Assembly (NCBI GenBank): GCA_016704485.1
Contig: JADJAA010000001.1
Location: 1,554,824 to 1,618,823, forward strand
Reading direction: 5' to 3'
Length of the DNA: 64,000 nt
From: Flavobacteriales bacterium
Lineage (GTDB): Bacteria > Bacteroidota > Bacteroidia > Flavobacteriales_F > PHOS-HE28
Shown here: piece after piece, positions 25,449 through 44,886 of the stretch
Numbering within the stretch: the first letter of the stretch is position 1
How the letters are laid out: each line of letters starts with the position of its first letter
The notes under the pieces: model-generated
What the model was told of the DNA's origin: nothing
Databases searched by the model: none
Seen by the model: only the letters and a program-made list of their open reading frames with translations
Translations under genes and position numbers: made by a program

Positions 25449-27004
25449 TTCAACAACGCCTCCAATTCGTCCAACAATTTCACACGGTCGGCGGCCAATT
25501 GGCGCAGGCCGGGTTCTCCCTTTTTGCCGTTGATCAGCTCGGCGGGCGTGGCATACTTCACTTGCTCGTACACCACCTCCTTGTAGCGGTTTATGCTGAG
25601 GTCCCAGTTGTTGGCCTTCAAGTCCGCAAAGGGCACCAGAAAGCTCTGGTCGGTTCGTGCACGTTTGCTTTCACCTTTCGCACCGAAGCGCGCTAGGATG
25701 TCGGCGATGTTGCTTTTCTCGTGCAGCGTTTTCGCTCCCTTGGTGGGCTCGGTGTATTGGAGTTCAAGCTGTTCTTCGGTGAGTTGCGGTGTGCGCTTAT
25801 CATCCAACGAGAAACCGTCGGCACGCATGTCGTAGAACCACACGTTGTCGGTACCGCCGCTATCGGTCTTGGTAAAGATCAGCACCGCGGTGCTCACCCC
25901 TGCATAGGGTTTGAATACGCCGCCGGGCATGCTGATCACCGCTTGCAATTGCTGGCGTTCGATCAGTTCCTGCCGCAGTTGCTTGTGCGCCTTGCTGCTG
26001 CCGAAGAGCACACCATCGGGCACGATCACAGCTGCGCGGCCACCTGTGCGGAGCATGCGCAGGATCAGACCTAGGAAGAGCAACTCGGTCTTCTTGCTGC
26101 TCACTGTGCGCAAGATCGCAGGGTCCACAGCGTCGTGGTCCAAGCTGCCTTTGAACGGCGGGTTCGCTAACACCAGCGAGAAGCGCTCACTGATGTGGCC
26201 TTGCTCTTTGCTAAGCGCATCCTGCCCGATCAGTTGCGGGTGCTCAATGCCGTGCAACATCATGTTCATGGCACCAATGCGCAACATGCTGGAGTCGAAC
26301 TCGACCCCGGTGAAGAGGTTGGTGTTGTAATGCTCGCGGAACTTCTTCTCGTGGAAGCTGTCCGGGTGCGTGCGCCGTATCTCTTCGCTTGCCGCCACCA
26401 AGAAACCGCACGTGCCGGCACTGGGATCGCAGATGGTATCGGTGGGTTGCGGAACCATCAGTTGCACCATCATGCGGATGATGTGGCGCGGTGTGCGGAA
26501 CTGGCCGTTGCGTCCTGCCGTAGCGATCTTGCCCAGCAGGTATTCATAGAGGTCGCCCTTGGTGTCGCGGTCGGCCATGTCCAGCGCGGCGATCATTTGC
26601 ACGGCGCGGTCCAGCAACCGCGCGGAGGGGATCATGAACGTAGCACCCTTCATGTGCTCACTGAACACGCTGCCCTCGCGCCCCATCTGCTTCATGAAAT
26701 CGAAGACCGTGAGGTTATCGTTCTTCGCATCAGGCCGCGTAAAGAGCGCGAACAATGTATCCGGGTCCTTGTCCTTGAAACTGCTCCACCGCAACGCCTT
26801 GTACTTGGGCGGGTAAATGGGATCCTTGATGGGCCCACCGAGCTTGGCGCTCTGCTTCTCTTTGGTGGTCTGGATCTCATCCATCCGGCGCAAAAAGAGC
26901 AAGTAGGTGATCTGTTCGATAACCGTGAGCGGATTGGCGATGCCGCCAGTCCAGAAGGCCTCCCAGAGGCGGTCGACGTCGGAGCGGAGTGTTCCGTTTA
27001 TCAT
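25445..27004 (-). CDS. hsdM: Type I restriction-modification N6-adenine DNA methyltransferase (HsdM)
   Basis: HsdM_N region present. Motif I ICDPSAGTCGFLVAA and motif IV LANPPFKGS are both intact. Confidence 0.9.
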   Translation of the reverse strand: MINGTLRSDVDRLWEAFWTGGIANPLTVIEQITYLLFLRRMDEIQTTKEKQSAKLGGPIKDPIYPPKYKALRWSSFKDKDPDTLFALFTRPDAKNDNLTVFDFMKQMGREGSVFSEHMKGATFMIPSARLLDRAVQMIAALDMADRDTKGDLYEYLLGKIATAGRNGQFRTPRHIIRMMVQLMVPQPTDTICDPSAGTCGFLVAASEEIRRTHPDSFHEKKFREHYNTNLFTGVEFDSSMLRIGAMNMMLHGIEHPQLIGQDALSKEQGHISERFSLVLANPPFKGSLDHDAVDPAILRTVSSKKTELLFLGLILRMLRTGGRAAVIVPDGVLFGSSKAHKQLRQELIERQQLQAVISMPGGVFKPYAGVSTAVLIFTKTDSGGTDNVWFYDMRADGFSLDDKRTPQLTEEQLELQYTEPTKGAKTLHEKSNIADILARFGAKGESKRARTDQSFLVPFADLKANNWDLSINRYKEVVYEQVKYATPAELINGKKGEPGLRQLAADRVKLLDELEALLK

Positions 27005-27017
27005 GGGGTGAAGATGG

Positions 27018-28226
27018 TCAATGTTTGGTGATGGTGGTAAATTCCCATTTAGACTGTCCGTTCAGTTCGACTTGTTTGACTTGGCCGGAAACGAGGTCGC
27101 CATCCACAAGGCTGTGTAGTTTTATCAGATCCTTGTTGATGTAGGCATCGCCAGCATGGGCGTAGGTGTTATCGTTGCGTTTCTTGACCACGACGCGGCC
27201 CAGTTCTTTGGTATCACCGTCGAGTAGGGGAACTCCGTCGCTGCCTACCGCTTCCTCGTGTAGCCAGGTTCGGTTCGCCTTGGGGTCTGGATACTTTGCT
27301 GCGAACTTCTTGAACCAGACCAACACGTCCATGAGCTGGAACACGATGGTGCTCAAGAGGTAAGGCGTTACACCATGCTCGTGTAGTGCTTCGAGATTGT
27401 CCAAGCTGTAATTGGAATCCTCAGCGGTCTCGTCCGCATGCGAGCTTTCGCTGGTTACCCGCAGAATATTGTCCAGTGCATCGGCAACGATCCGGGGCAT
27501 CATCGGGCGGTCACACTTCAAGGCCACCGTGGCCGAAGAACGGCTCGGATAAAGCACGCGCTCGCCCCGCAGGAACAGTGCTGACAAGCGTTGGTTGACC
27601 CTCGGCTTTACAAGGACATCGGGTAGTAACCCGTGCCGATGCGCGGCATAGAAGAAGTGCTCCACTACCTGACGCAAAGGATTCATGAATAAGCGATCAC
27701 TACCGGACTTGTCCCCGCGATCCACAAAGCGCAATGCGTCCATGAACATAGGGTCGGCAACGGCATCCAAATAAGGAACTTGGAGCACTGCGAACACATC
27801 GGCATACCTATCACGAAGCGCTTGCTCGTTGCTTCGATCAACAAGGCTCTGTAGTTCCGCGTATAGGTCCTTCTCGTTCCCTTTCAAGTACCGCCGCTCA
27901 TCACGACGGTTCTTTGTTGCACCTTCGTCAAAGCCGGTATTGATCACATACGGAATATGAATGTTCGCTCCTTTCCATTGGTCCAGATCCCTGCGGGCTT
28001 CATGCAGGTGGTCGATGTCCTCGGTGGGTGAATGTTCATCCACCTGCCCTCTGGCATCGAGGATCAAGGCTTTGAAACGCTTTTCTCGGATCGGTTCCTT
28101 AGCCTCGGCCCAGGTCTTGAACCAAGTCACTTCGAAACCGTGCGCGACCGCCTTAGCAATTTGGGCTTTGGCGTATGCTTCATCGTCATCTACTAAGGCG
28201 ATCGGAACCAGGTCAAACAGTGTCAT
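27018..28226 (-). CDS. Receiver (REC)-like domain protein with uncharacterised C-terminal output domain
   Basis: Likely start MTLFDLVPIALVDDDEAYAKA (acidic pair after beta-1). Putative phospho-acceptor Asp in KALILDARG. Thr in IPYVINTGF. The C-terminal ~300 aa are unknown and contain an Rx4H motif (RQVVEH). The start overlaps the stop of the upstream kinase gene by ~14 nt, and the gene ends 13 nt before the hsdM start. Confidence 0.55.
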   Translation of the reverse strand: MTLFDLVPIALVDDDEAYAKAQIAKAVAHGFEVTWFKTWAEAKEPIREKRFKALILDARGQVDEHSPTEDIDHLHEARRDLDQWKGANIHIPYVINTGFDEGATKNRRDERRYLKGNEKDLYAELQSLVDRSNEQALRDRYADVFAVLQVPYLDAVADPMFMDALRFVDRGDKSGSDRLFMNPLRQVVEHFFYAAHRHGLLPDVLVKPRVNQRLSALFLRGERVLYPSRSSATVALKCDRPMMPRIVADALDNILRVTSESSHADETAEDSNYSLDNLEALHEHGVTPYLLSTIVFQLMDVLVWFKKFAAKYPDPKANRTWLHEEAVGSDGVPLLDGDTKELGRVVVKKRNDNTYAHAGDAYINKDLIKLHSLVDGDLVSGQVKQVELNGQSKWEFTTITKH

Positions 28227-30909
28227 GCGAAATGGGAAGGTCAATGGTGAAGTGGACAAACATTTGAGTGGATACAGCTTCCCGGTCAAATGGTATCCAA
28301 TGATTCTCGTCTATACGTTGATCGCGTTCAAAACTCGATCGGTACTTGTCATCGCTCACTGGCAGGTTACCCGACACGAACTTTCCGCCGTGGTTGGCAA
28401 TGATCCGATCGATCAGATAGCCGCCTATGCCATTGCCCTTTTTCATGTCCAGACGCTTGCCAAAGGTGATGAAGTGCTCATGGGTAAAACCTTCCGGAAA
28501 GGGTTTGCCGTTGTTCTCGATGGTGATAACCAATCGCGTTCGTTGAGGTTCAATACGCGTTGATACCCTCACCCGTACGACCAATTGTTCCTGATCCGAT
28601 CGAAGGCCGTGTTTGGCCATATTGATGAACAAGTTCTGGATGACAAGTGCGAACTGTTGTTGATCGACATGTGCGATCACTCCTTCAGTGGTTTCTAGTC
28701 CAGCTTCACATTCGAAAATGACCATAAGCGCTTTCACCTGGTCGGCAAGTCCGCGCAATTCCGTTCGGAACAGTCGACGAAGGTCGATGGGCACTGGTCT
28801 TAGACTCTCCTTATCTGATCGGATCACCGCATTGATCAATTGAAAGAGACCGCGCATGCGATCCAATCCACTATTCATTGTATCTAGGGCGGTGGTGATC
28901 GTAGACTTTTCAACTGGGCCCAAACTGTTGAGTACTGCATGGATCTCGGCCATGGGTTGCTCCAGAAGCGCCACCACCGGGCGGAAGCTGTGCTCCACTG
29001 CACCAAGGATCTGCCACTCATCAGTGGAGAGGCCATGCTGTTTTTCCTGCCTAGCGATCTCCTCCTTCTTCGCCAATAGAATGGATTCCTTCCGTTCGCG
29101 AACAATGCGCAGTTGATCCTTGAGTTCGGGTAAGCGAACCCGAATTCTCAGAACGTCTGCTTTGGCTATGAAAGCGATCGTACTTCCTTGGTGGTATGCG
29201 TCGAGCTGATCTTGGATCGTGGGCGTTCTTAGTTCTGTTGCGAGGTATTCGGTATTAGCACGAGCCGCATCCACACGGAACATGAATACATTGCTTCCCA
29301 CGGCGATCGGTCCATCTACCGGGTCGAATAAGGTCGGCTTCAACTTTCCGCCCACCCGTGCAAGTAGCAGTGCTGGCACATCCAATCTCTTCAGTCCCTT
29401 CTTGACAGAACCGGTTTCATGTTGCCCATCACGCGCCGTGCGCCTCATGTCGAGGACATCCGTTGAAAGCTCGGAGACCTGGAAGAGCGGCAGACCGGCG
29501 AGGTCGCCCATGGAGAGGATATCGTCCGAAAGCACGGTGCCGAGTTCAACCACGTCCACACCATCCGCTTCGGCCACGATATGGGCTTGTTGAAGCAGGC
29601 TGGCAAACCGACTCATGCTCCAAGACACATGCTCGTCGGAACGGATGTCAGAAACCTTCACGTCCAAAACACCTTGTAAGGTATAAGTGCTATCCAACGC
29701 CTGCAGCACGCTGCTAACATCGAGTGTTATTTCGGATCGCGTCTTGTATGTGACATGCAAACCCGCATCCACGAATCGGACAGGCGCATTCGTTGGCCGT
29801 GATCCATTCAAAACAATGATCGAGGTCTTTATCCCTGAGTAGGGTGTGAAGGATCCTGCTGGCAACGAGATCACTGCTTCGAGCAACCCTAGGTCAAGAA
29901 TCTGTTTGCGTAGATGCGCTCTGTTGATGCCGAACAACATACTCTCGGGCACAAGGATCACCGCCTTCCCCTCGGGTGCAAGCCGCTTGAGGATCTGGTT
30001 GATCGCTATCTCATAGGGTTCTATCGCGCGTAGCCTTCCTTCCTCTTTCACTCGACCACCGAAAGGTGGTGCACTAATGCAATGCGTATACTTCTTGTTG
30101 GAAGCACCGGGTGCTGATGGTTCGTTCAAGGCGGCGTTCAGGTCTGCCCCGAGAATACGTGCTTGCAGCGTATTGAAGAAGAATGCGAATTGGTTGAAGA
30201 ATACCGCGTCGAGCTTTACAGAATGTGGCGCACGCGCTGCGAGCACTGCTGGCAATACGCTCGCATCCGCAGCTGGGTCGAATACCTCTTCCACGTCTCC
30301 GAGCAGCCGCGCCATAAGCATTGCAACGGACCATGGCGTACAGAACTGGCCCATGTGACTATCGCGCAAGAGGAGGCTACGCATTTCTTCCACATACTCG
30401 ATCGGTTCCAAACCCGCTGATGCCATGAGAAAAAGCTCAGTTTGTACTGGGCTTGTTGCCAGTGCGCCGCCATTTTTAAGAAGATACGAATGCTGCTCCC
30501 CAAAGTCCTTAAACTCCTCTGCCAATTCATTCAAGGTGGACCATAATCCTTCTCCTCTTTGAGCGATCGTAGGCAACACTCCTGCTGGGCGCACGGCCAA
30601 GGCATAAATGAGTGCCAGCTCCAAGCCAACGGTCTGCGCGAAGGGCATGGATCGTAGCGCATTGCGCAATTCCCATGCGTGGGCCTGAAAAAAACGGACC
30701 CGGTTCAACATACGTTCTGGATCCAACTGTAAACTACCGTCATCGGATATACTAACACGCCCACCAGACAACTCCACCTCAGCAAGCAAGCTCGATGGCT
30801 CAACGTCCTTCTGGCTCAATAAGACCTTGACGATATTACAGACACCCTCCAAAGTATCCGAGCCGTTCTTCAGGCGAAGGGCACATATTATGGCGTCTAT
30901 CAGTTTCAT
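28213..30909 (-). CDS. Fusion protein: degenerate N6-adenine MTase-like domain + HsdS-like TRD + histidine kinase (HisKA + HATPase_c)
   Basis: MTase fold present: GQFCTPWSVAMLMARLLG...VFDPAADASVL (the glycine-rich SAM loop is degenerate) and ISAPPFGG (motif IV with Asn/Asp replaced by Ala). TRD-like stretch: VGSNVFMFRVD...STIAFIAKADVLRIRVRLP. H-box: AVEHSFRPVVALL. N box: VIQNLFINMAKHG. G boxes: IENNGKPFP and GNGIGGYLIDRIIANHGG. Confidence 0.75.
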   Translation of the reverse strand: MKLIDAIICALRLKNGSDTLEGVCNIVKVLLSQKDVEPSSLLAEVELSGGRVSISDDGSLQLDPERMLNRVRFFQAHAWELRNALRSMPFAQTVGLELALIYALAVRPAGVLPTIAQRGEGLWSTLNELAEEFKDFGEQHSYLLKNGGALATSPVQTELFLMASAGLEPIEYVEEMRSLLLRDSHMGQFCTPWSVAMLMARLLGDVEEVFDPAADASVLPAVLAARAPHSVKLDAVFFNQFAFFFNTLQARILGADLNAALNEPSAPGASNKKYTHCISAPPFGGRVKEEGRLRAIEPYEIAINQILKRLAPEGKAVILVPESMLFGINRAHLRKQILDLGLLEAVISLPAGSFTPYSGIKTSIIVLNGSRPTNAPVRFVDAGLHVTYKTRSEITLDVSSVLQALDSTYTLQGVLDVKVSDIRSDEHVSWSMSRFASLLQQAHIVAEADGVDVVELGTVLSDDILSMGDLAGLPLFQVSELSTDVLDMRRTARDGQHETGSVKKGLKRLDVPALLLARVGGKLKPTLFDPVDGPIAVGSNVFMFRVDAARANTEYLATELRTPTIQDQLDAYHQGSTIAFIAKADVLRIRVRLPELKDQLRIVRERKESILLAKKEEIARQEKQHGLSTDEWQILGAVEHSFRPVVALLEQPMAEIHAVLNSLGPVEKSTITTALDTMNSGLDRMRGLFQLINAVIRSDKESLRPVPIDLRRLFRTELRGLADQVKALMVIFECEAGLETTEGVIAHVDQQQFALVIQNLFINMAKHGLRSDQEQLVVRVRVSTRIEPQRTRLVITIENNGKPFPEGFTHEHFITFGKRLDMKKGNGIGGYLIDRIIANHGGKFVSGNLPVSDDKYRSSFERDQRIDENHWIPFDREAVSTQMFVHFTIDLPISHDTV

Positions 30910-30971
30910 GCAACGGGGGTCAAAGTAAGCGGTGGAGGGTTATGGTGTAGATGTGTTTGCAGGTTATGATC

Positions 30972-32234
30972 TCAAGCGACTTTCTCCAGTCGGTTTGTCG
31001 GCAGAAGTTGGGCAGCCATACGATCCATGACCTCCCATTCCGGACGTGTGTACGAGTTGCTCTCCGTGACCACCGGGATCCTGAATTCGCCCATGGCATC
31101 CTCGCGCATAGCCCATTGATCCTTCTGGTCGTAGAGCTTTGTTCCGGGCAAAAGCATCAGCGGCCAAGCCTTAACGTCCCTGCAGCCTTTGGATAAGAGG
31201 TGGTCGATACTACGCTGGAAACTTTCCAAGGTCTGTCCGGGCAACCCGTAGATCAAACTCACTTCGAAAGGAATCTCGCGCTCCACAAGCTGTTCAATAG
31301 CAGCATCGACAAGATCCATCCGATTGGCGCGGTCAATTTTCTTGGACACTGCATGGTCCGTGGTCTGCAACCCGAACTCCAAGTGGAAGTTGGCTTGCGT
31401 ACAAAGGTCCAGGAATGCATTAACCTGTTGGCCTCGGATATTCTCAAAGCGCGATTGCAGGGTGAAGGTGGAGCGCGTACGGAGTTGAACGATCTCTTGC
31501 ATTATATCCAGGCACTCCTTCCCAGCGTTGAAGATGGGGTCGAGTATGTTCACGCGTTGCACACGATGTTCAGTGAGAAATGCTAACTCTTTAAAGACTT
31601 TATCCAGTGGGTGCTTATGCACGCGGTGAGTGGCGAGGTCGCGGTGTGCGCAAAATGAACACCGGTAGGGGCAGCCGCGTTTGGTCTCCAACCGTACCAT
31701 ACCGGCTCCCATTGGTACAGGCAATTCGCCAGTGAGATACGGTGAGGCCAGTTGTGTGAAGTCCACTGGTACGTTCACGAACACGGGTTCGTCGGCATCG
31801 AGATGGTCCGTCAATTCGGCAAAGGCTTGTTCGGCTTGTCCGGAGATGAAGACCTGGCAATCCGGATACCGACGCAGCAATTCTGCTCGGTTCCCGTAGG
31901 TGACTTGATACCCTCCGAGGACCACCTTGCCAAGGAACCCAAGACGACGAAGCAATGCGATGATGCCATTGGTGAGGTACTCGTTCCAGATGTAAGCCGA
32001 GAGCGCGATGGCGTTAAAGCGGCTCACATCAAGCGCCGCGAGTTGCACTTCGAATTGCTCGGGTGTGGCCGTGCCGCCGTGTTCGAGCATGTTGATCGAG
32101 AGGTGTTCCACGTGCATCTGTCCACGCAGCCGTTCATTACTCCGTTGGTGTGCCAAGAGAGATGCGATCGCCAAGGGCTTGGTGATCTCACCGTGCCGGA
32201 TCAGGTCGAAGGATATGATGAGCGTGTTCGTCAT
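30972..32234 (-). CDS. B12-binding-domain radical SAM protein
   Basis: N-terminal cobalamin-binding-like Rossmann region followed by a radical SAM cluster motif (MVRLETKRGCPYRCSFCAHR). The ~420 aa are counted from the probable start MTNTLIISFDL. Confidence 0.8.
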   Translation of the reverse strand: MTNTLIISFDLIRHGEITKPLAIASLLAHQRSNERLRGQMHVEHLSINMLEHGGTATPEQFEVQLAALDVSRFNAIALSAYIWNEYLTNGIIALLRRLGFLGKVVLGGYQVTYGNRAELLRRYPDCQVFISGQAEQAFAELTDHLDADEPVFVNVPVDFTQLASPYLTGELPVPMGAGMVRLETKRGCPYRCSFCAHRDLATHRVHKHPLDKVFKELAFLTEHRVQRVNILDPIFNAGKECLDIMQEIVQLRTRSTFTLQSRFENIRGQQVNAFLDLCTQANFHLEFGLQTTDHAVSKKIDRANRMDLVDAAIEQLVEREIPFEVSLIYGLPGQTLESFQRSIDHLLSKGCRDVKAWPLMLLPGTKLYDQKDQWAMREDAMGEFRIPVVTESNSYTRPEWEVMDRMAAQLLPTNRLEKVA

Positions 32235-32343
32235 TGGTCCTCGCCACCAAGGGTCTATATGGTTGGATAATCGCTCAACCAACGAACTTCCCTATGGCAA
32301 CGGACCAAAAGTCCCGGTCACCTGTGCAGTCTATCTGCACAGT

Positions 32344-33354
32344 TCATTTCGCGTAGTTCTTCTTCATTTCCATCACCCGCAAAAGCAGCGCTTGGCGTAG
32401 TTCTTCCGGCGCAATAACCTGTAGCCCTTCTCCATAAGATAACAACAAGGCTTGTAGCTCGTAGTTCAGCTTCACTTCTAAACGAATAGTCGCGCCGCCG
32501 TCTTTTCTCTTCACTACTTTCTGCGAACCGTGTATAGGCTTTGACTCCAAATAAGGCCAAAGTCTATCCGTGACTTGGATCTTGACAACAACAGCTTCTT
32601 GATCCGCAGGTACACTTACACCAACAACATCCTCAAAATACTCCGTGAAATCCACCTCATCGTTCGGTATGTATTTCACCTTACTGGGTACAATATCCCG
32701 GATCCGGTCCAAGGCCATATTGACAATACGCCCCTCTTCCTCAAGACCAAAAACAAACCAACGGTTGTTATACTGTTTCAAGTAATACGGATGGAGCAAC
32801 ACAATGCTAGGCGCATTTTGCTTGAAGCCTTGGTAAGATATTTCCAAGGCTTGCTCATTGATGATCGAATGAAATAATGTGGTAATGTGCTCGGCACCTT
32901 TCAAATACGGGTTCTGCTCAAACTCGATGACCTGAGCAGCCCCTTGTTTCAGCCCGAAACCAGCTTCCAACCGAGCAACTAATTCATCTACCCATTCAAA
33001 CTGCGGCATGCCCTTAAATCGGCTCAGCGTTAAGAGCGCCTCCTTCAATTGTTCCGCTTCGCTCTCGTTCAGCGGTCGCTTGTTGATAGAGAATTCAAGG
33101 TCACTGTACCGGTAAAAAGTACGCTTTCCGTCTTTGTGTTTCTCCAGCGGGATAGCCCATCCTTGTTCGCTCTCCATGTACTTGATGTCCTCGAAAACTT
33201 GGCGGCGGCTGATGCTTGCACCTGCTCCGGTGAACTCCTCCAACGCCATGTTGCAAGCTTCCATCAGGTCTTCGATGAAATACTCGCGCCCACGGTTCGC
33301 AAAGCAACGGTCCATTGTCTGATAGCGAATAAGGGCATTCTTATTTACGGGCAT
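32344..33354 (-). CDS. WYL-domain transcriptional regulator (wHTH-WYL; BrxR/CapW-like)
   Basis: The ~336-aa size and architecture match BrxR/CapW regulators. The WYL-like core is LLHPYYLKQYNNRWFVFG, with an N-terminal HTH region. It sits at the head of a same-strand defence gene block. Confidence 0.65.
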   Translation of the reverse strand: MPVNKNALIRYQTMDRCFANRGREYFIEDLMEACNMALEEFTGAGASISRRQVFEDIKYMESEQGWAIPLEKHKDGKRTFYRYSDLEFSINKRPLNESEAEQLKEALLTLSRFKGMPQFEWVDELVARLEAGFGLKQGAAQVIEFEQNPYLKGAEHITTLFHSIINEQALEISYQGFKQNAPSIVLLHPYYLKQYNNRWFVFGLEEEGRIVNMALDRIRDIVPSKVKYIPNDEVDFTEYFEDVVGVSVPADQEAVVVKIQVTDRLWPYLESKPIHGSQKVVKRKDGGATIRLEVKLNYELQALLLSYGEGLQVIAPEELRQALLLRVMEMKKNYAK

Positions 33355-33493: not shown

Positions 33494-33895
33494 CAGCTGG
33501 GTGGTAACCTGCACCAAGCTTGATGGTACCACACACCAAGCTTAGTGGTACCCTGTGCCAAGCTTAGTGGTACCTTGCACTAAGCTTGATGGTACCCTGC
33601 ACTAAGCTTAGTGGTACCCTGCACTAAGCTTAGTGGTACTCTGCACTAAGCTTAATGGTACCCTGCACCCAGTTGGGTGGTACCCTCCACCCAGCAGGGT
33701 GGTACCCTGCACCCAGTTGGGTGGTACCCTGCACTAAGCTTAGTGGTACCCTGCACTAAGCTTAGTGGTACTCTGCACTAAGCTTAATGGTACCCTGCAC
33801 CCAGTTGGGTGGTACCCTGCACCCAGTTGGGTGGTACCCTGCACCCAGTTGGGTGGTACCCCGCACTAAACTTAATGGTACCCGACACCAAGCTC
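33494..33895. repeat. 22-bp tandem repeat array (~18 units) with two unit types and a 6-unit higher-order repeat
   Basis: Unit T1 is ctgcactaagcttagtggtacc and contains palindromes ACTAAGCTTAGT and GGTACC. Unit T2 is ctgcacccagttgggtggtacc. The pattern (T1 T1 T1' T2 T2' T2) occurs twice. No ORF is present. Confidence 0.9.
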
Positions 33896-33983: not shown

Positions 33984-34206
33984 GGTCCGCTATCTATACC
34001 ATACTACTATAGGGCACATTGAACCTTAGTCTGGACTTCCGCCTTCGGAACTGCATTCGCTGCCAGATGATCATTGGGGTGCAATTATCCCAAACCTATA
34101 CCATATTACTATAGGGGGCATAAGCCTCCATCTCCGGCTCGTGAACTTTGGAGGTAAAGATGGTGTGATTTGACCTACTACCTATACCATATTACTATAT
34201 GGTGCT
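33984..34206. promoter_or_regulatory. Three dispersed copies of a ~21-bp dyad-symmetric site (cCTATAccatattacTATAGGg) spaced ~90-110 bp apart
   Basis: Copies at ~33986-34008, ~34094-34116 and ~34182-34204. The 6-bp inverted arms CCTATA/TATAGG are operator-like. Confidence 0.5.
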
Positions 34207-34287
34207 TTGCACCGTGCGCCTCGTGGTGCACACTTGTGGTTCAGAACTGCTTCATGTAGGCCTGGTGCAAGAGGCTGTATTTGTTCC

Positions 34288-34750
34288 ATTGGTACATGGC
34301 CTTGTCCCGTAAGTACATGTACTTGTGCCTTTGGTACATGTACTTGTCCCGTGAGTACATGTACTTGTCCCGTAAGTGCATGTACTTGTCCCGTGAGTAC
34401 ATGTACTTGTCCCGTGAGTACATGTACTTGTCCCGTAAGTACATGTACTTGTCCCGTAAGTACATGTACTTGTGCCGTTGGTACATGTACTTGTCCCGTA
34501 AGTACATGTACTTGTGCCGTTGGTACATGTACTTGTGCCGTTGGTACATGTACTTGTGCCGTGAGTACATGTACTTGTGCCGTGAGTACATGTACTTGTC
34601 CCGTAAGTACATGTACTTGTGCCGTTGGTACATGTACTTGTCCCGTAAGTACATGTACTTGTCCCGTAAGTACATGTACTTGTCCCGTAAGTACATGTAC
34701 TTGTCCCGTAAGTACATGTACTTGTGCCGTGAGTATGTGTACCTGTACCA
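34288..34750. repeat. 21-bp tandem repeat array (~22 units) built around the perfect palindrome GTACATGTAC
   Basis: Units are cccgt(a/g)agtacatgtacttgt and gccgttggtacatgtacttgt. All six frames are open across the array because the period is 21. Confidence 0.9.
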
Positions 34751-35352
34751 TGTGTAACGATACTTCAAGTTACAGTACACTTACTTGATACAGAGGTGCT
34801 TATGCCATTGCGTGGGGTATGCCTGCTTGTAACACGGGGACTGATAACCCACTCAGCGTCAGGCGTAAAGAGTGATCCGAACGTTGCCCGTGCTGCATAA
34901 CCCATCCTCGAGCGGCCGCGTGCGGGCTACAGTAAATGAAAAGAACCCCGGCCAGTTGTGCTAGGATTCTTCCGTTCGGGGATGGTGTATGAGTGGCAGG
35001 GTCGTCTGCTATGCGGCAGACTGACCCTGAGCGGGTTTAAAAATGCGCCGCTGCACTACGCAATGGGTAGCGGATGCGCAGTTCGCTTACCTGGTGGACC
35101 CCGCATCGCCCGAAGCGGAACTTCCGCACAAAGCAACCCTCTTGGTGCACTGCCCGGAACGCGGCGAGATCCGGCTGAATATATTGTCCAACGGTTCCAT
35201 CGCCGAACTACAGTTCACGGACTGCTATGAACCGATGTCCAGAACCACCAGCATAGCAGAAGAATCCGATCCGATGTCTCCTTTTACCGTGGTACATCGG
35301 CATTGGGATCACGGCAGTGAGGTGTAGGTGTGCCCCTCATTTGAATGGAACG

Positions 35353-35392: not shown

Positions 35393-35457
35393 CGCGAGAG
35401 ACGAGCTTCCATTCTTGCAGACCATGGATCAATGGGCATTGGATGGAATGTAAATTG

Positions 35458-36426
35458 TCAAGCCTTTATGAACTCGTTCACAAAAGCTTGTACAAATTGC
35501 TTGGCTAAAGCAGAGTAAGGCTTGGTCGGCTCTGTCAGTTGCATCAGCAATTCCACCTCTTGCTCGATCATCGCCTCAATTGTTCCTGTGGTCTTTTTTA
35601 CAAGTTTGTTCAATGTACGTGTTGGTACTTTATCCTTGAATGATCTGATATCCTTACCGATCTCGTTCGATAGGTCGATCAATTTCAAGATCATCTCAAA
35701 ACGCATTTTTAATCGCAGAATGTATTCTCTGCGCATATCGACCAACCCCTTTCTATTCAAGCCGTAGATCTCAATGGAACGGATCGCTTTTTGCCAATGG
35801 ATCTCCCTTTTTATCACGTTCTCTGATGAGGGCAAAGCAATGGCCTTCATTACTCCTGAGTCATCGTATTCCAAGTATTTGCTAGGTTCGTCCGTACAAG
35901 GGTTCAACAACAAACATTGTTCGCCTGAAATATCGAACAGCGGCGCACTCGCACGCATTGTTTCATCAAACAATGGAAAAGAGTTTGCCTTTCCTTGTTT
36001 TAGCTTTTTCCATTGATAGGACCCATCTATGGGGTTCTTTCGATACACATATTGATAGCGCGCTCTATTGCAGTCTATGCATGAAGGGAGTAGATTATCC
36101 CATTCCATTGCGAGCTTAGCATATACACCTACTTTAGTTTCGGTCTTGTTCGTCAATTCTACGAGCACTTCGGATTTGGGTCTGAAATGCTCAATATCCA
36201 GCGGTTGTGTGCGCGTGTAAGGTGATTCGCAATATGCACATTTACCATGGAACATAAGCTCCAACAACTCAGGCACTTTTTCGTGCTTGTAAAGCTTGAA
36301 ATCGGGCTTTAGGTCCTTGTGGAAATCGCTTCGAAGCCATGCTTCCACCTCTTCCTTTTCTTTGTTGAAGGCATCCGAGGTTATGGTAAGTGCCTGCGGG
36401 GCATTTACGCGTTTTCGTTTGATCAT
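35458..36426 (-). CDS. HNH endonuclease of the TIGR02646/PtuB type (Septu-like nuclease component)
   Basis: HNH motifs GKCAYCESPYTRTQPLDIEHFRPKS...WDNLLPSCIDCNRARYQ. 322 aa. Lies immediately downstream of the ATPase gene. Confidence 0.7.
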   Translation of the reverse strand: MIKRKRVNAPQALTITSDAFNKEKEEVEAWLRSDFHKDLKPDFKLYKHEKVPELLELMFHGKCAYCESPYTRTQPLDIEHFRPKSEVLVELTNKTETKVGVYAKLAMEWDNLLPSCIDCNRARYQYVYRKNPIDGSYQWKKLKQGKANSFPLFDETMRASAPLFDISGEQCLLLNPCTDEPSKYLEYDDSGVMKAIALPSSENVIKREIHWQKAIRSIEIYGLNRKGLVDMRREYILRLKMRFEMILKLIDLSNEIGKDIRSFKDKVPTRTLNKLVKKTTGTIEAMIEQEVELLMQLTEPTKPYSALAKQFVQAFVNEFIKA

Positions 36427-36434
36427 TGAAGAGC

Positions 36435-38822
36435 TCAGTTGTTCAGGCGCCAGGAAGCATCCGTTAAAGCCTCTATTATCTTCTTAGTGGGTTTGGGAAA
36501 TCGTACGTTGGTCGGTGACTTCATCAAGTGCTCATCGATCAGCCTCAACAAGTACATATCACGCCGACTACTACCGAGAATGCTCTTTCTGTTGAGTCGT
36601 TCATGTAGATCCTTCAGTTGTGCCTTACCCGAATCATCTAACGCCGATGCCTTCGCTATGAGGTTGTAATAGCGGTCAAAGAATTCAGCTGTGCGCGGGT
36701 CCAGGGTTGTACTTAATCCGAATAATTCTGAGGTAAGGAGCTGGTCGGAACGTAAGCCAGCCGGCGAATCCATGTCGTCGTGTACTGTAGCCATGGAAGG
36801 GTCGTCCACATTTCTCTTGACCAATGCTACTTCACCAGCACCCAGCCCATGCAGGCATAGTGGCTCATGGGTGCTCGCGATGAATTGGATAAGCGGAAAT
36901 GTCTGTTCCAATCTTCTTAAGATGCTCATGCGCCAACTCGGGTGCAGATGTGCACCGATCTCATCAATTAGTACCACGCCTCTAATTTGATGCGTATCCG
37001 TTGGATTGCCTGCCATTATATCACAGGCTAGACCAACCATGGTCTTGTAACCCGCACTAAAATGCTTTAAGCGGGTGAATGACCCGTTCACGAAAAGCCC
37101 GAATTGTGTTGGCTTGTTGTTTTCAAATTGAAAGTCGAGACGTGTAGAATTATCTGTAAGATCCAGCAGGTCCTTCAAGGCCACACAAACATCGAAGAAC
37201 TGCTGTTGATTCTTTACCACTATGGTACGTAACCACTCTTCGGCATCTACCATGGGATAGAACGGGTCAAAGAGGTTCTGGATGTTCTTATTCACTCCCC
37301 TTTTCTCTAACAGATCAGAACTCTTGCCTTTTTGCGGCAGCAATCGAACAGGCCCGTATGCACGAAGAAATATATTCGGGACCTCACCTTGCTCCCATTT
37401 TAATCCGCTATTCGTGATGTTCACTACGATAGGATCTGTTCGCTGATGAAAGTAGACTTCAATTCTACCTGACGTAGCTCCACGCCTCAAGCTAGTGCTG
37501 AAATGCTCCTTCATCTTACTCAAGGCTTTCTTGCCGCTGAGTATCAATGCAAGTGCTTCGAGCAGCGAACTTTTTCCTGACCCGTTCTCACCCAGCAGCA
37601 TTTTCCAACCGCTGTGTCGAAAGGTTTCCTGTTGTGGAGATTCGGAGCCGTTTTCGTCGATCGTCTTCCGGCGTTCCTCTTGATTGCCTCCCGCTGTTTC
37701 CGTGTTCAAGTCTAAGTTCAGTTCACGTTCTGTGTCTACTAGGTCTTTCGGGCGTTCTTGGGGGATCAAGAATACAGCCTTCTCGAAGATCCTGTAATTC
37801 TCAACTATTAATTTGCTAATGGTCAGCGCTTGATGCGCGACTTTCTCCTTGGACGGCGCATTCTCTGTGGCGGTTTTCGGAGGAGTTCTTTGCGCCTCGG
37901 AACTCGTCTTCTTTGGAGACTCCTTATTAGCGCGTGTTGATCCCGGTTTCGTACGCGCTCCGGTCTCAGCTTCTAATAAGGACCCAGGCTTATTGAGCCC
38001 TTTGCTTATTGTTTCGACGTGCAGGCCGTCGCCTTGAATGAGGATTTTTAGTCCGAAGTCCTCCTTAAGAACATGGTTACTCAGATTCCGCATTGGACTT
38101 TGCGGGTCTATCAGTCCTTTCAAGAAGTGATCTTCTTCTACGGTTCGAGGTAGTTTCTCACCCTTTTTTTTAAGAACCAGAGACTTTGTCAAGTCGCGAA
38201 CTCGGTGAACCATATCACTCCTTCTATTGATGGCGGATTTCCGGTTCAGGTCCAGAGTTTCAATGGTCACCTCGGCTCGTCGCTTCTGCATGTGCCCTAA
38301 AGTGGAACGAGGCTTTATCATTCCATTAGATGAATAGTCGAAGTACTCCTCCGGATCGTCTTCATAAGGATTCAGCAAATACGGTTCTTCTTTCTCGAGC
38401 GCACTCCCCCGAGGCTGGTCATCAGCATGCTTGATAGGAACACGTTTTCCGGCGATGGGAAACTGTGCTCCCTTTGCAAAACTGCACTCATTGCATATGG
38501 GTAGCATGTTCTGCCAATCAAACAATAGCCACCAATAGTGGTCGCCAACCTGCTCATTTGGTTCCACTTTTACCGGTCGGTACAGGTCGATGTGTACCGT
38601 CTTTTCATTCAAGGGTGCTTCGCAATACGCACATGCATTATTGGAGGTTTCCAGAAGATCTCGGTTTACATCACGAGAATACTGTGGAGCCTTGTGTCTT
38701 ATCTGGCTTCGCTTCTCTAAAGGTTGCGCATAAAACTTCCGAAGTTCATTGAACGTCTTCTCTCCTTCCGTACTGTACTGTAGGTCTGGTGGAGATACTT
38801 TACTTCGGTTCAGTTTTCTCAT
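36435..38822 (-). CDS. AAA_21/ABC-type ATPase (PtuA-like) with an additional N-terminal HNH-like domain
   Basis: N-terminal HNH-like region NACAYCEAPLNEKTVHIDLYRPVK...WQNMLPICNECSFAKG. A low-complexity linker is followed by Walker A MLLGENGSGKSSLLEAL, Walker B VVLIDEIGAHLHP and FIASTHEP. Confidence 0.7.
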   Translation of the reverse strand: MRKLNRSKVSPPDLQYSTEGEKTFNELRKFYAQPLEKRSQIRHKAPQYSRDVNRDLLETSNNACAYCEAPLNEKTVHIDLYRPVKVEPNEQVGDHYWWLLFDWQNMLPICNECSFAKGAQFPIAGKRVPIKHADDQPRGSALEKEEPYLLNPYEDDPEEYFDYSSNGMIKPRSTLGHMQKRRAEVTIETLDLNRKSAINRRSDMVHRVRDLTKSLVLKKKGEKLPRTVEEDHFLKGLIDPQSPMRNLSNHVLKEDFGLKILIQGDGLHVETISKGLNKPGSLLEAETGARTKPGSTRANKESPKKTSSEAQRTPPKTATENAPSKEKVAHQALTISKLIVENYRIFEKAVFLIPQERPKDLVDTERELNLDLNTETAGGNQEERRKTIDENGSESPQQETFRHSGWKMLLGENGSGKSSLLEALALILSGKKALSKMKEHFSTSLRRGATSGRIEVYFHQRTDPIVVNITNSGLKWEQGEVPNIFLRAYGPVRLLPQKGKSSDLLEKRGVNKNIQNLFDPFYPMVDAEEWLRTIVVKNQQQFFDVCVALKDLLDLTDNSTRLDFQFENNKPTQFGLFVNGSFTRLKHFSAGYKTMVGLACDIMAGNPTDTHQIRGVVLIDEIGAHLHPSWRMSILRRLEQTFPLIQFIASTHEPLCLHGLGAGEVALVKRNVDDPSMATVHDDMDSPAGLRSDQLLTSELFGLSTTLDPRTAEFFDRYYNLIAKASALDDSGKAQLKDLHERLNRKSILGSSRRDMYLLRLIDEHLMKSPTNVRFPKPTKKIIEALTDASWRLNN

Positions 38823-38823
38823 C

Positions 38824-40638
38824 TTAACTATGTGCTATTCTGTGGAACGTGTTCGCCAAATAGTGCTTCGGGTTAGTCCTGGCGATCAGGTCGAATTGTG
38901 CTTCGCTCAGGCCGGCCAGCATATTGGCATAGAGCTCCTTTTCTGATAGGTGGTTCCTCACGACAAAAAAGTCTGTACCGAACAGGACCCGTTCACCGAG
39001 TTTCTTCACTGAATGGTCGATCGTCTTTTTCAGTAACGGTTGTATCCACGGATCGTGCAATATGTAACTGATATCTGCATAAACGTTCTCATAGCGCAAC
39101 ATCATACTGCAAATGATCGTGTACCAGTCAGCTTCCATCCAGTGAGCGTAGACACGTGTCCATTGGATGCGCTTGTGTTCGTTGTCATAATACGATCGAT
39201 GAAATAATCCGCTTTCAGCATGCAGGTTCAGATCTTGGTTGTACTGGTCATTATCGGCTTCTAAATGTCGTTTCCATTCATCAACACCACCAAAATGTGC
39301 CAAGCAGATCTTCAATTGAGAAAGTGATCGGAATTTTTCATCGGGACCTTTTTCGAACAACGTTTGAATTCGGGGTTGGCAGCTCACGAGGTGCTCCCTC
39401 AAGAGGTCATCATCCAGCAGGCAGAGGTAGTTCAATGGATGTGTGTAGTTCTTTTGAAAGTCGATTCCGCGAAGTTCCAACAGGTCAATGGGTGCGATCA
39501 CCGTATCGTCATGTGCGTCCTCTATTCCGGTTGAACGCTTGAAGACAGGATGCTTTGCCATTTCATCAGTGATCTTGTCTCGGGAATATATTGTGCCATG
39601 CACGCAATGGGTCATGATCGGTAAACCTTCCTGAGCTGCATACGCCCACACGGGCAATAGGTCTTCATCGAAAGGATAATAACCTAAAGCCGGGTAGATC
39701 TTGAATCCGCAGCAACCATTGCTTAGATACTTCTGGACTTTACATTCAAGCAAGACTACTTTACCGTATTCTACTTTCCACTTGAAGAAGTCATCCTCTT
39801 CACGAATTCGGCGTGGATCAATGAAGATGAAAGGCAGTATTTGATGTCCATGATCTTCACCTTTGGTAAGTTTTACAAGCCCTTCCATTTGTTTGTGGAA
39901 ATCACCTAATCGGTGGACCTTCCCCGCACCCATGTATTTCATATCCATTGGTAGAACAATGAATTTGGTTTCGGCTGGGTACTGGGCCCGGAGTTTTTGA
40001 AAGAGTAGACTTAGTCGCCTTTGGTCATCACCGGTTTTCGCACTTTTCGTCTCGTAACCATAAGAGCTGAAGCGTGCGATAAGTACGTATCGCTCCAAAA
40101 GGTCCATGTACTCCGTAGCAGGAAAGCTCTTGATCATTGGAACAAACTTTTGTAGAAGGAACCAGATCTGTCTTCGAACGGCTGGGATGAATGCAATAAT
40201 TGCTGCTACGAATATGGTCTTGATCGCCCAGTGTAATTCATGAAAGTATAATTTATACTTTACAAGTAACGCCAAGAACGCCGCGATATATTTCGACCCG
40301 CCATAGAAGGTGCTTTCAACCAAAACTTCATAAAGGAATAATAACACATAGATCGTAACGATCAAATTAAACGCACCTCGTACAAACTTCAAGAAGCTGT
40401 TTCGTTGGATCCTGTTCTGCGCCTTTACCTTGTTTATGCGTATGGTTTCTTGTGCCGGTTCATACCGCTCGGCATACTTCCGTCGGTTGCACTTCACGTA
40501 AAGTTTCATGAAGTAATCCATTCGCGCCCACTTGTACAACGGCCACGGAAGAATACCCTTTGCATGCTCTGGAGGCACGTGATAGTTGTTGAACAAGTGC
40601 ACGTGGCAGTTCACTATGGGGTCCTTCACTTTACTCAT
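38824..40638 (-). CDS. Amidohydrolase-family (TIM-barrel metal-dependent hydrolase) protein with inserted hydrophobic membrane-like segments
   Basis: N-terminal metal-binding motif HxH (CHVHLF). A hydrophobic insertion follows (FNLIVTIYVLLFLYEVL, IAAFLALLV...IFVAAIIAFIPAV). The C-terminal region is ...LFGTDFFV. Its stop lies 1 nt upstream of the PtuA-like start. Confidence 0.6.
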   Translation of the reverse strand: MSKVKDPIVNCHVHLFNNYHVPPEHAKGILPWPLYKWARMDYFMKLYVKCNRRKYAERYEPAQETIRINKVKAQNRIQRNSFLKFVRGAFNLIVTIYVLLFLYEVLVESTFYGGSKYIAAFLALLVKYKLYFHELHWAIKTIFVAAIIAFIPAVRRQIWFLLQKFVPMIKSFPATEYMDLLERYVLIARFSSYGYETKSAKTGDDQRRLSLLFQKLRAQYPAETKFIVLPMDMKYMGAGKVHRLGDFHKQMEGLVKLTKGEDHGHQILPFIFIDPRRIREEDDFFKWKVEYGKVVLLECKVQKYLSNGCCGFKIYPALGYYPFDEDLLPVWAYAAQEGLPIMTHCVHGTIYSRDKITDEMAKHPVFKRSTGIEDAHDDTVIAPIDLLELRGIDFQKNYTHPLNYLCLLDDDLLREHLVSCQPRIQTLFEKGPDEKFRSLSQLKICLAHFGGVDEWKRHLEADNDQYNQDLNLHAESGLFHRSYYDNEHKRIQWTRVYAHWMEADWYTIICSMMLRYENVYADISYILHDPWIQPLLKKTIDHSVKKLGERVLFGTDFFVVRNHLSEKELYANMLAGLSEAQFDLIARTNPKHYLANTFHRIAHS

Positions 40639-40766
40639 TTTTGATCCAGTGCGTACTGATCACTTATAGAGATCTTATGATGCCAGTACTATCGGTCAGA
40701 AATGCATTGACTTGCCACCACATTATTGTGATGGCTCATGGTCGAATGGAACGTAAATCTGTGGAG

Positions 40767-41864
40767 TTAAGAATTAGGTACTATCTGCACACCAAACCGG
40801 AACTGGAAATTCTTCTTCACGAAATCATCTCCGGAATACCAATTAGCCACTATTCGAACGACGCTATTCAATGCTAAACCTGCGCTGAATTGCCAAAGAT
40901 CGATACCTCCCTCTGACGTACGATCAAGATTATGCCAAAAAACAGCATTTCCACTTATGTGAGAATAGCGCACTTGACCAAAAAGAGCCATGCGATCCTT
41001 AATCCCAGTAAGTGAAAATACCATTTCTGCACCATTATCAAAGTTTTGGCCAACGACATTTGTGTCTACCCCGATCTTAGGAAGATCGAAGGATAATCGA
41101 GGTGCATAATGCAAGCGAATGGACAATCGACGGTTCAGTGAGGTAAATCCGACAATTGGCACACCGAAATTCAAAACCCCGTTTCCGCCACCGCCAAGAA
41201 TACGTTGCACCTGATCTTGGAAAGTGGCGCTGGAGTCTGAAACTGGCACTGTATCTGGCTCACTCGTCTTGTTGCTGATCAGCGCACCAAAACCCATTCG
41301 CACTGGTCCGAAATAATCATAAACAACCTCCGAGTATAGAGATGCTTTCTGTGCTTGCCCACTATACGTGAGGAGATTATTCTTTAGGAGTTTTCCCCGT
41401 TCCTCTTCAGAACTGAAACCATCGTAGAAATATTCCGTCGCAATTCGCCGGACCGCCAAGCCATAAAGCCCTTCTGTTACATCCGGATCGAACCGGATGC
41501 GCAACAATTCTTCTCTGTACGACTGGAAATCCTGCCTTCGCTGTCGATATGCGGCTTTCAGTGAATCGATCAGTTCTTTTGAATCGGCGGAGCGGTCATT
41601 ATCCAGTGCTTGGAACGAAGCTCTTCGGAATGCTTGTTTGTGTTTCTTGTTTTCGGCTCGATCGTCTTTCAAAAATGCATATACACTCTTTACTTGTATT
41701 GACGAATCAGACGGTTCAAGGAATTTATTCAGTTCAACTTTTGTTAAGTCTATGTTGCTTTTCCGAGACTCACTGTTTGGAAAAACAAATGGCCCCGTTT
41801 GTGCGAACATTGTGCATGAGGTTGAAAGCAGGAATATCGCAATTGTTGTTCGTCTCATTGTCAT
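40767..41864 (-). CDS. Secreted hypothetical protein (signal peptide; possible outer-membrane protein)
   Basis: N-terminus MTMRRTTIAIFLLSTSCTMFAQ. No domain recognised. Confidence 0.45.
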   Translation of the reverse strand: MTMRRTTIAIFLLSTSCTMFAQTGPFVFPNSESRKSNIDLTKVELNKFLEPSDSSIQVKSVYAFLKDDRAENKKHKQAFRRASFQALDNDRSADSKELIDSLKAAYRQRRQDFQSYREELLRIRFDPDVTEGLYGLAVRRIATEYFYDGFSSEEERGKLLKNNLLTYSGQAQKASLYSEVVYDYFGPVRMGFGALISNKTSEPDTVPVSDSSATFQDQVQRILGGGGNGVLNFGVPIVGFTSLNRRLSIRLHYAPRLSFDLPKIGVDTNVVGQNFDNGAEMVFSLTGIKDRMALFGQVRYSHISGNAVFWHNLDRTSEGGIDLWQFSAGLALNSVVRIVANWYSGDDFVKKNFQFRFGVQIVPNS

Positions 41865-41884
41865 ATACTTTTCAGTTCAATTAT

Positions 41885-42676
41885 TTAGACTTCTACACCA
41901 TAAGATTCCGTGAACGCCGCTTCAGCGTATGATTTGCTGGCGTAAGCAAACCCTTTGTCTCCCCACAGAGTGGTTCCCCAACTGTTTCGCACGATGAAAT
42001 GATCAGGCGTGTATCCGACAATAGAGACAGCGTGGCCACCTAGGTTGTCGCTGGCACGGTAGCGCGCTAGTTTGCCCCGTGTCTCTTTCGCATCCATAAA
42101 GGCGTTGTCACAGTTCAGCCGGGTGAGAATGGGGCCTTTGTTGGCGATCCAGCGCCGCCATTCATTCAGGTCTTGGCCTAATGAGAAGTAGCGCATCACC
42201 TTCAACTGCGCAGCAATCGCGTAGAACACATCGGTCTCATCCGGATAGAGTATTCCGCGACCGAAAGGCAACACGCTATCCAGCACTGCGCCGTATTTGC
42301 GCGATACATCGAGTGCTGCTTTCAGACTGGTTCCATCGCTTTCAATGAATGAGGTTGGTTTGTCGGTGAATTCATCGATCTCCTTTGCGGCCATCCATGT
42401 AAAGCGCGTGCTAAGCCTACGGTTGGTGGCGATCCTTCCGGCTTTTGCGAAATGCCAACGCAGCACACCTTCGGCGCAAGCCCAGCCAACGCACGAGCCG
42501 GTACTTCCTTGGTCGCCAATGGTCCACCAATCTTCTCGCAAGTCTTTTTTAGGCGGAGGTGGTGCTGGTGCGCGTAGTGCGCCAGCGGCACGTGCTGTGT
42601 GCAAGTTCCAATCGTTTGCGGTGTTCAATGAAGGAAGGCAATTGAGGACGCGGGGAGGTGATTTCTTTGTTGCCAT
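41885..42676 (-). CDS. C1 (papain-like) cysteine peptidase family protein
   Basis: Motif QGSTGSCVGWACAEG around the catalytic Cys. A His-containing region lies near the C-terminus (GGHAVSIVGY). Confidence 0.55.
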   Translation of the reverse strand: MATKKSPPRVLNCLPSLNTANDWNLHTARAAGALRAPAPPPPKKDLREDWWTIGDQGSTGSCVGWACAEGVLRWHFAKAGRIATNRRLSTRFTWMAAKEIDEFTDKPTSFIESDGTSLKAALDVSRKYGAVLDSVLPFGRGILYPDETDVFYAIAAQLKVMRYFSLGQDLNEWRRWIANKGPILTRLNCDNAFMDAKETRGKLARYRASDNLGGHAVSIVGYTPDHFIVRNSWGTTLWGDKGFAYASKSYAEAAFTESYGVEV

Positions 42677-44865: not shown

Positions 44866-44886
44866 ACGCATGCGGTTCCTGCACAT

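Follow-up and report, generated by a model that had tools for sequence, protein, structure and literature searches.

The question raised by this locus is what a long and very regular tandem array of 21-bp units represents: a set of overlapping genes, as open reading frame (ORF) lists suggest, a part of the defence genes on either side of it, or an element of another origin. The array lies in a 64,000-nt stretch of the genome of a Flavobacteriales bacterium (assembly GCA_016704485.1, contig JADJAA010000001.1, positions 1,554,824 to 1,618,823 of the forward strand), here called the window; other loci are designated by L numbers. The array is almost certainly non-coding. Sequence comparison shows it to be a degenerate member of a cassette of a response regulator, a 21-bp array and an FN3-domain protein, and a stranded paralogous copy of a conserved Bacteroidota cis element. 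The cassette is apparently undescribed so far; a literature search on GTACATGTAC and on 21-bp repeats in Bacteroidetes/Flavobacterium found nothing relevant.

34292-34746, no strand assigned: 21-bp tandem array of 21.7 units with the consensus GTACATGTACTTGTCCCGTAA.

Tandem Repeats Finder called this run of 455 bp at 34292-34746 with period 21, 21.7 copies, 91% matches, no indels and a score of 693, in agreement with the roughly 22 units given in a preliminary description of the DNA. With the units laid out in register, a perfect GTACATGTAC, which is a 10-bp palindrome, is found in 19 of the 22. The first, the last and one internal unit are degenerate, and the earlier statement that each unit has a perfect palindrome is correct for the 19 and not for these three. 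Within the window the 10-mer is confined to the array. In units that end in AA the palindrome grows to 14 bp, AAGTACATGTACTT. Variation between units is restricted to column 15 (C or G) and columns 20-21 (AA, GA or TG). Two alternating variable halves had been proposed; instead there are four tails in irregular order, CCCGTAA (10 units), CCCGTGA (3), GCCGTTG (4, plus one GCCTTTG) and GCCGTGA (3). The window array is the most uniform of those examined, with 91% matches compared with 73-83% for L048, L055 and L056. A CRISPR array was considered and rejected, the 11-bp intervening part being the same across units except for the three variable columns, with no unique spacers.

Scanning one genome per species for GTACATGTAC-N11-GTACATGTAC gave 36 loci, about 24 of which are 21-bp arrays with the same core and other 11-bp fillers. 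Their hosts are termite-gut Bacteroidales and Treponema metagenome-assembled genomes (MAGs), Flavobacteriales, Flavobacterium sp. SM2513, Taibaiella and Fimbriimonadales. Several genomes have more than one GTACATGTAC array, and many of the arrays are found at contig ends. Eight lie directly upstream of a gene for ~210-250 amino acids (aa) with an FN3-like C-terminus, and two downstream gene families were distinguished, the NHDFIP-type (six arrays) and FN3 (two arrays). The arrays of L025 (85% identity to the window array) and L018 (80%) are both upstream of FN3 genes.

Protein homology led to L048, situated on the same 2.15-Mb contig as the window array and ~390 kb from it. The L048 array has 20.7 units of GGTACATGTACTTGCGCCATC and is flanked by a NarL/FixJ-type response regulator on one side and an FN3 gene on the other. 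Window positions 34182-34729 and L048 4230-4777 align without gaps over 548 bp with 75.7% identity, an alignment that covers a conserved motif, a leader of ~90 nt and the array. Outside the cassette the neighbours of L048 are non-defence genes, namely HSP20, a type IX secretion system protein and GNAT.

33994-34014, plus strand: motif copy 1, CTATACCATACTACTATAGGG, identical to the single copy in L048.
34096-34116, plus strand: motif copy 2, CTATACCATATTACTATAGGG.
34182-34202, plus strand: motif copy 3, CTATACCATATTACTATATGG.
34203-34291, plus strand: ~90-nt leader from motif copy 3 to the array, alignable with the leader of the paralogous array in L048.
L048 3532-4194: response-regulator gene of the paralogous locus, at ~1.319 Mb on contig JADJER010000001.1.

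The three motif copies of the window belong to three tandem modules of ~90-100 bp upstream of the 21-bp array, each containing CTATACCATAYTACTATAGGG. The conserved form of the motif is TACCATACTACTAWAGGG (also given as TACTATAGGG), with GGGTG ~20 nt upstream. In addition to the three window sites it is found at L048 4230-4250, L059 ~3270 and L064 ~2866, where it lies 35-60 bp past the stop codon of the regulator, and a shortened form is present in L055. The motif shows CTATA-N9-TATAG dyad symmetry and could be a promoter or a regulator box. Its 3' part, ACTATAGGG, may correspond to the promoter core of T7/K11-class phage RNA polymerases.

The cassette is found in more than 40 Bacteroidota loci. 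Its order is response regulator, motif, 21-bp array, two GC-rich palindromes, a conserved GCTTTTGTGGGTACAGC ~25 nt ahead of the FN3 start codon, the FN3 gene, optionally one or two genes designated X, and often a GNAT acetyltransferase. This order is seen in L018, L025, L048, L055, L056, L057, L059 and L064, and dozens of metagenome contigs have it as well. The arrays comprise 14-22 units over 300-460 bp and end ~230 bp before the FN3 start. A NarL/FixJ/GacA-like regulator is directly upstream in L048, L018, L056, L061, L064, L079/L090, L088, L089 and L112; it scores with the UvrY/SirA/GacA model, below the model cutoff. The array of L018 (6849-7178), L025 (1431-1738), L069 and L070 has the opposite orientation to that of L048 and L059 with respect to its flanking regulator and FN3 genes; the gene-proximal spacer stays colinear.

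The FN3 protein has ~210 aa and was modelled with AlphaFold2 (mean per-residue confidence, pLDDT, 91) as a helical bundle with an FN3 domain. Foldseek searches of PDB and viral structures with this model returned generic FN3 domains only and no functional lead. Neither the FN3 protein, a weak fn3 match aside, nor the X or NHDFIP-type protein could be assigned to a family in Pfam, PHROGs or NCBIfam. A profile built from NHDFIP-type proteins together with one FN3 protein (A1) gave no match in a sequence search of PDB. Additional repeats were noted in L056, where three extra tandem arrays (8 bp x24, 17 bp x7 and 16 bp x3.4) occupy 2811-3200 between the regulator and the 21-bp array, and related 16-bp and 8-bp repeats recur downstream of the FN3 gene. 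Distant FN3-domain matches in L143 and L144 are found beside ordinary CRISPR arrays (repeat GTCGCCCCCTTCGCGGGGGGCGCGGATTGAAAC) that are unrelated to the 21-bp arrays.

The cassette to which the window array belongs is only partly preserved there.

35043-35327, plus strand: 5'-truncated X gene encoding 94 aa, corresponding to residues 60-154 of the 155-aa X protein.

The truncated X has 86% amino acid identity to P0069 of L061; in L061 and L064 the X gene is downstream of the FN3 gene. DNA homology to X begins exactly at 35043/35044 and continues to ~35396 when compared with the first X copy of L061 (4567-4918) and with L064, and the first 59 codons have thus been lost. No FN3 homologue was found in the window by tblastn. 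Nor was the cassette regulator found in it, the only related regulator, at 46305-46940, being part of a different conserved block. Positions 34750-35042 have no detectable homology to any cassette. Further to the right, 43493-45408 has 99.3% nucleotide identity to L064, and the genes after 45408 (257 aa, 214 aa, a histidine kinase and a regulator) have 81-99% protein identity to L061/L064. The truncated X gene and the conserved flank at 43.5-46.7 kb show the window locus to be an orthologue of the intact cassettes.

Between X and the conserved block the loci carry different cargo. The window has Septu and four more genes with 44-48% G+C (35396-43492), L064 a PLD nuclease and one gene (5487-8503), and L061 three other small genes (5472-7453). 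The borders are sharp, with flanks 90-99% identical at the nucleotide level and cargo that differs. The window array is situated at the edge of this defence-island hotspot, between the WYL-led operon and Septu, and the locus illustrates the erosion of a resident cassette by such a hotspot. In L064, whose flank is near-identical, the cassette is intact and its units are unrelated in sequence, which shows a rapid turnover at the locus.

The period of the array is far better conserved than its sequence. In a survey of arrays reached by FN3 protein homology, and hence unbiased by DNA pattern, 33 of 35 had a period of 21 or a multiple of it (42, 63, 84, 105 or 126). The remaining two had period 22 and are both beside distant FN3 homologues (33-34% identity). 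Apart from an oriented GTGAY or ATGTAC element, the unit sequences of different lineages are nearly unrelated. Of 27 array types, 14 have GTGAY once in each unit on the FN3-sense strand and one has it on the antisense strand, the shuffle expectation being 1.2. In L099 the place of the window's GTACATGTAC is taken by GTACATGTGAC with the period still 21, which indicates that indels in the unit are compensated. Conservation of array length (300-460 bp), two-turn period and position, while the sequence is almost wholly replaced, is unusual for bacterial regulatory DNA. Dyad symmetry as a property of the whole class was rejected; it is a feature of the GTACATGTAC subfamily and a few others.

The array had been described as open in all six frames. 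Five frames are open, and one plus-strand frame, reading GTA CAT GTA ... TAA/TGA, is closed by 16 stops inside the array. The reasoning that a 3n period leaves no stops in any frame was consequently wrong; with seven codons per unit a frame is open by chance at ~0.71, giving ~4.3 of 6 open frames, and related arrays have 1-6. The ORF list does show four overlapping calls of 158-193 aa, as stated. The interpretation of these calls as something other than four genes, a non-coding binding-site or satellite array, is supported by the lack of a conserved frame, the disagreement between gene callers, the orientation flips and the 22-bp distant relatives, protein binding itself being a supposition from sequence. 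It had also been remarked that the ORFs have no obvious promoter, and a scan for the Bacteroidota-type TAnnTTTG promoter found none on the plus strand ahead of the array. A scan for sigma-70 promoters and terminators gave nothing beyond shuffle expectation.

A heptad-repeat protein, (HVLTGQV)n on the minus strand or (YMYLSRK)n or (TCTCPVS)n on the plus strand, would agree with a period of seven codons that is kept in 33 of 35 related arrays, with the five open frames and with the calling of ORFs of 83-189 aa by gene callers. It is nevertheless very improbable. No core-anchored frame remains open throughout ~45 related arrays; among 21 arrays of the GTACATGTAC subfamily the VHV frame is open in 19, YMY in 15 and TCT in 18, none being open in all. 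The VHV frame is closed on both strands in L048, the paralogue of the same genome, and the TCT frame on both strands in L016, L024 and L027. Frames anchored on GTGAY, on either strand, are likewise not open in all arrays, and xGT-GAY has 10-12 stops in L073, L079 and L093. In most of 24 loci the open frames terminate no more than some tens of bases from the array ends, and conserved termini outside the repeat are lacking. Lineages whose FN3 proteins still share 60-70% identity have unrelated predicted repeat peptides, and most heptads contain Gly or Pro, unlike a coiled coil. Different strands and frames are chosen by gene callers in different assemblies of this same locus, and distant relatives have period 22. 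The coding interpretation was rejected because of the absence of a conserved frame, the unrelated heptads and the disagreement between callers. The four ORFs called in the array are artefacts and should not be annotated.

As to function, the chances are about even that the array is a helically phased, multi-site platform for protein binding. Each 21-bp unit would be one site for a DNA-binding protein, the site being the dyad GTACATGTAC in the window lineage and the oriented GTGAY in most other lineages. Since 21 bp make two turns of B-DNA, all sites would be on one face of the helix, and this phasing may be the reason for the 21-bp period. Some 20 protein units could line up cooperatively over 300-460 bp, and the array would serve as a platform controlling the flanking promoter from upstream. 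The leading, though still tentative, candidate for the specific binder is the adjacent response regulator. Its helix-turn-helix differs where the unit differs, an unusual type, 'KYNG...RTGC', being paired with GTAYRYRTAC units. In the window genome the binder would be the regulator beside the paralogous array ~390 kb away, which shares the core. Since the regulator, the FN3 gene and the first 59 X codons have been lost, the window array would be either a relic whose uniformity is maintained by unequal recombination or a site that is still occupied in trans.

At the Bordetella fha and ptx promoters, dimers of BvgA, a regulator of the NarL family, bind along one face of the helix with their centres ~22 bp apart. 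The cassette shares with these multi-dimer regions an adjacent regulator with a LuxR-type helix-turn-helix, a spacing of about two turns (21-22 bp), the presumed use of one DNA face and the position upstream of a promoter. It differs in having 14-22 near-identical units over 300-460 bp where the BvgA regions have 2-4 dimers on degenerate sites, and in that the regulator gene is absent from the window and its binding to the 21-bp array is presumed. If the adjacent regulator does bind, the array would be by far the largest known phased regulator-binding array and a tractable model of co-evolution between site and protein. More speculative, and distinctly improbable in its full extent, is an undescribed regulatory architecture in Bacteroidota and possibly Spirochaetota. 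About twenty exactly phased sites would nucleate a long regulator filament or be read out as a tandem-hairpin RNA, and the unit would co-evolve rapidly with its binder while the period is fixed. The orphan copy would be bound in trans by the regulator 390 kb away, coupling a two-component signal to the defence-island hotspot or buffering it by titration.

A number of results weigh against a phased binding platform. Dyad arms of at least 5 bp are found in only 11 of 28 unit types, with individual P values mostly above 0.05; dyad symmetry is therefore not general, and a dimer on a palindrome fits the GTACATGTAC subfamily but not all arrays. The covariation of helix-turn-helix and unit is confounded with phylogeny, and the strand bias of GTGAY is equally compatible with an element acting at the RNA level. 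A larger second set of GTACATGTAC arrays (termite-gut Bacteroidales/Treponema and SM2513) precedes a different family of ~220 aa. The homology between this family and the FN3 family was not significant with hhalign, and no adjacent regulator was seen beside the arrays of this set. L061 (2570-3658) has a cassette of regulator, FN3 gene and two X genes with a 1.1-kb non-repetitive spacer and no array, which makes the array dispensable. In a Taibaiella MAG, L024 (1871-2100), an array of the GTACATGTAC type is found between a divergent catalase gene and a type I hsdM with no FN3 gene nearby. Known response-regulator promoters use far fewer than twenty tandem sites.

Some of the same features could be explained by an action of the array as RNA, either as a structured leader or 3' untranslated region or as a free non-coding RNA of ~21 abutting hairpins. 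This is the main alternative, though considered unlikely. The 21-nt unit would fold as a 7-bp stem (UGUACUU/AAGUACA) with the 7-nt loop GUSCCGU, and many copies of an RNA-binding protein would be bound as in the CsrB/RsmZ sponges under GacA/UvrY-type regulators. In the window as in L048, L059 and L064, motif and leader always precede the array on one strand. All three have survived jointly in the window without the flanking genes, the motif being triplicated. The strong strand bias of GTGAY, the GC-rich hairpins after the array in L048 and L059 and the match of the regulator, below cutoff, to the UvrY/SirA/GacA model point the same way. Stem variants (A to G in columns 20/21 and 3) give G.U pairs on the plus strand and A.C mismatches on the minus strand, and the plus strand folds better (-0.47 vs -0.37 kcal/mol/nt, z -7.7 vs -5.7); this asymmetry in folding energy tracks G+T richness, and in tandem palindromes both strands fold strongly as a matter of course. 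The strand that folds better coincides with the FN3 direction in just 11 of 19 arrays, and the asymmetry is of no use as an indicator of the transcribed strand. Many arrays lack a significant dyad and hence hairpins, and in the four inverted arrays (L018, L025, L069 and L070) the orientation relative to the neighbours is flipped. The lack of a plus-strand TAnnTTTG promoter also speaks against transcription, and Rfam 15 at permissive E-values matched microRNA models only, noise of 21-30 bits against thresholds of 76-101. The array shares with CsrB, RsmY and RsmZ, which are controlled by GacA/UvrY, some 20 short repeats possibly in hairpin loops, a FixJ/NarL-family regulator and a conserved upstream box. 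Those sponges are not strictly periodic, and a sponge would not need an exact 21-nt period across fully diverged arrays; moreover, the 21-bp array has neither a CsrA-type GGA motif nor an Rfam match. There is a modest possibility, on the unlikely side, that the window array is a functionless relic, a satellite kept long and uniform by unequal crossing-over and replication slippage, which is compatible with function elsewhere in the family. The missing regulator and FN3 genes, the X gene cut exactly at 35043, the lack of cassette homology in 34750-35042, the rapid turnover seen from L064 and the complete loss of the array in L061 are all as expected of a relic. Less expected are the greatest uniformity among the arrays examined, a unit number close to that of the intact paralogue (21.7 vs 20.7), an upstream motif that is intact and triplicated, and the presence in the genome of the paralogous regulator, which is paired with the same core sequence.

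The position between the WYL-led operon and PtuAB suggests a working part of the flanking defence systems, such as an operator or decoy for the WYL regulator or Septu, and genes for methyltransferases, helicases or nucleases often adjoin cassettes or arrays (L024, L025, L055, L056, L061 and L064). This is nevertheless highly improbable. The same six-gene WYL operon in L145/L146 (68% identity) has an upstream spacer of 110 bp and no arrays, so that the 21-bp array, which starts 940 bp from the WYL start codon, is not regarded as part of the WYL system; L149, with a different WYL operon (extra DUF2130 gene), also has no array. The Septu block (35396-43492) is cargo, with other genes in its place in L061 and L064, and the closest relatives of the array are upstream of FN3 genes in non-defence contexts. 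The link to defence loci drawn in the preliminary description is thus an indirect one: the array is part of neither the WYL system nor Septu, and what stands is its place as a cassette remnant at the edge of the hotspot. The idea of a restriction-site decoy was rejected, GTAC and CATG not being depleted in the window and neither these nor GGTACC and AAGCTT notably so outside the arrays. An origin as iterons or as the centromere of a plasmid or mobile element that has integrated would account for the period (21-22 bp), the copy number (18-22) and the palindromic cores of both this array and a neighbouring 22-bp array, and the region is a hotspot of gene turnover. R6K 22-bp iterons, P1 incA, F sopC and R1 parC also consist of ~20-bp tandem repeats, often with a dyad core and a period of about two turns, and arrays of these kinds are bound cooperatively by one protein. 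The probability of this origin is minimal. No rep, par, integrase or transfer gene is adjacent according to Pfam and PADLOC, which gave WYL, radical SAM, methyltransferases, PtuA and PtuB only, and no Rep/ParB/ParR-type genes were found in more than 40 loci. The 21-bp arrays are chromosomal, have more units, occur several per genome and, in paralogue and orthologues, are promoter-region elements upstream of one gene family. The array resembles iterons, centromere arrays and response-regulator promoter arrays, but it does not qualify as either of the first two.

Repeat tracts in front of genes, with a length that could tune expression, are also known from contingency loci such as the 7-bp repeats upstream of Haemophilus hmw. 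The 21-bp unit differs from the 1-7-bp units of such loci, and the unit number is equal in all assemblies that span the array. The protein of the WYL gene is identical in wastewater 'Flavobacteriales bacterium' MAGs, including GCA_016708985.1, contig JADJER010000001.1 (2.15 Mb). Three long-contig MAGs and one Joint Genome Institute (JGI) metagenome contig of the same organism span the array, and all have 21.7 units; no phase variation of unit number was seen among spanning assemblies (21.7 in the window array and 20.2-20.7 in L048-type arrays). GCA_035432745.1 (L040) has N gaps inside both arrays and L044 (a k141 contig) a shorter array of 14.7 copies, differences that look like assembly artefacts. 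Many metagenome contigs (among L067-L114) start inside the array, just upstream of the FN3 gene. The arrays evidently break short-read assemblies, as seen from such contig starts and N gaps, and the element has probably escaped notice for this reason.

Between the WYL start (33354) and the next ORF (35043), 1.7 kb are free of genes. The interval from the WYL operon to Septu contains, in order, a candidate WYL promoter, a 22-bp array, the three motif modules, the 21-bp array, 290 bp of unique sequence and the 94-aa ORF. The candidate promoter, near 33462, is of the Bacteroidota type.

33501-33894, no strand assigned: neighbouring 22-bp array of 17.9 units with a 132-bp higher-order period.

This second array, reported earlier, is real. 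Its cores are GGTACC plus AAGCTT or CCAGTTGG, and it directly adjoins the candidate promoter of the WYL gene. A related 21/22-bp array, GTGCAGG(G)TGTACCGAC, is found at the contig start of the closest WYL homologue (76% identity, L147/L148), ~640 bp upstream of WYL, and the more distant WYL operons of L145 and L149 have no array. The 22-bp array may be an element separate from the 21-bp array.

Left of the array, on the minus strand, the WYL/WCX regulator gene (32344-33354) leads a six-gene operon at 24303-33354 with a counterpart in L145 (10001-19131). The order is WYL/WCX, B12-type radical SAM (PADLOC PDC-M51A), a ~900-aa N6-methyltransferase/HATPase fusion, a ~405-aa unknown protein, HsdM and HsdS, and it is the same in another Flavobacteriales genome. 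The operon looks like one composite restriction-modification-like defence system. Right of the array, also on the minus strand, come Septu PtuB and PtuA (35458-38822) and after them four further genes, in a block with a lower G+C content. In the 795-aa PtuA (36435-38822, minus strand) the PtuA ATPase models match residues ~400-770 and PtuB (HNH-like) models residues 1-240. PtuA thus has a PtuB-like domain at its N-terminus besides the separate PtuB gene downstream, and it is preceded by an unannotated 604-aa amidohydrolase-like gene.

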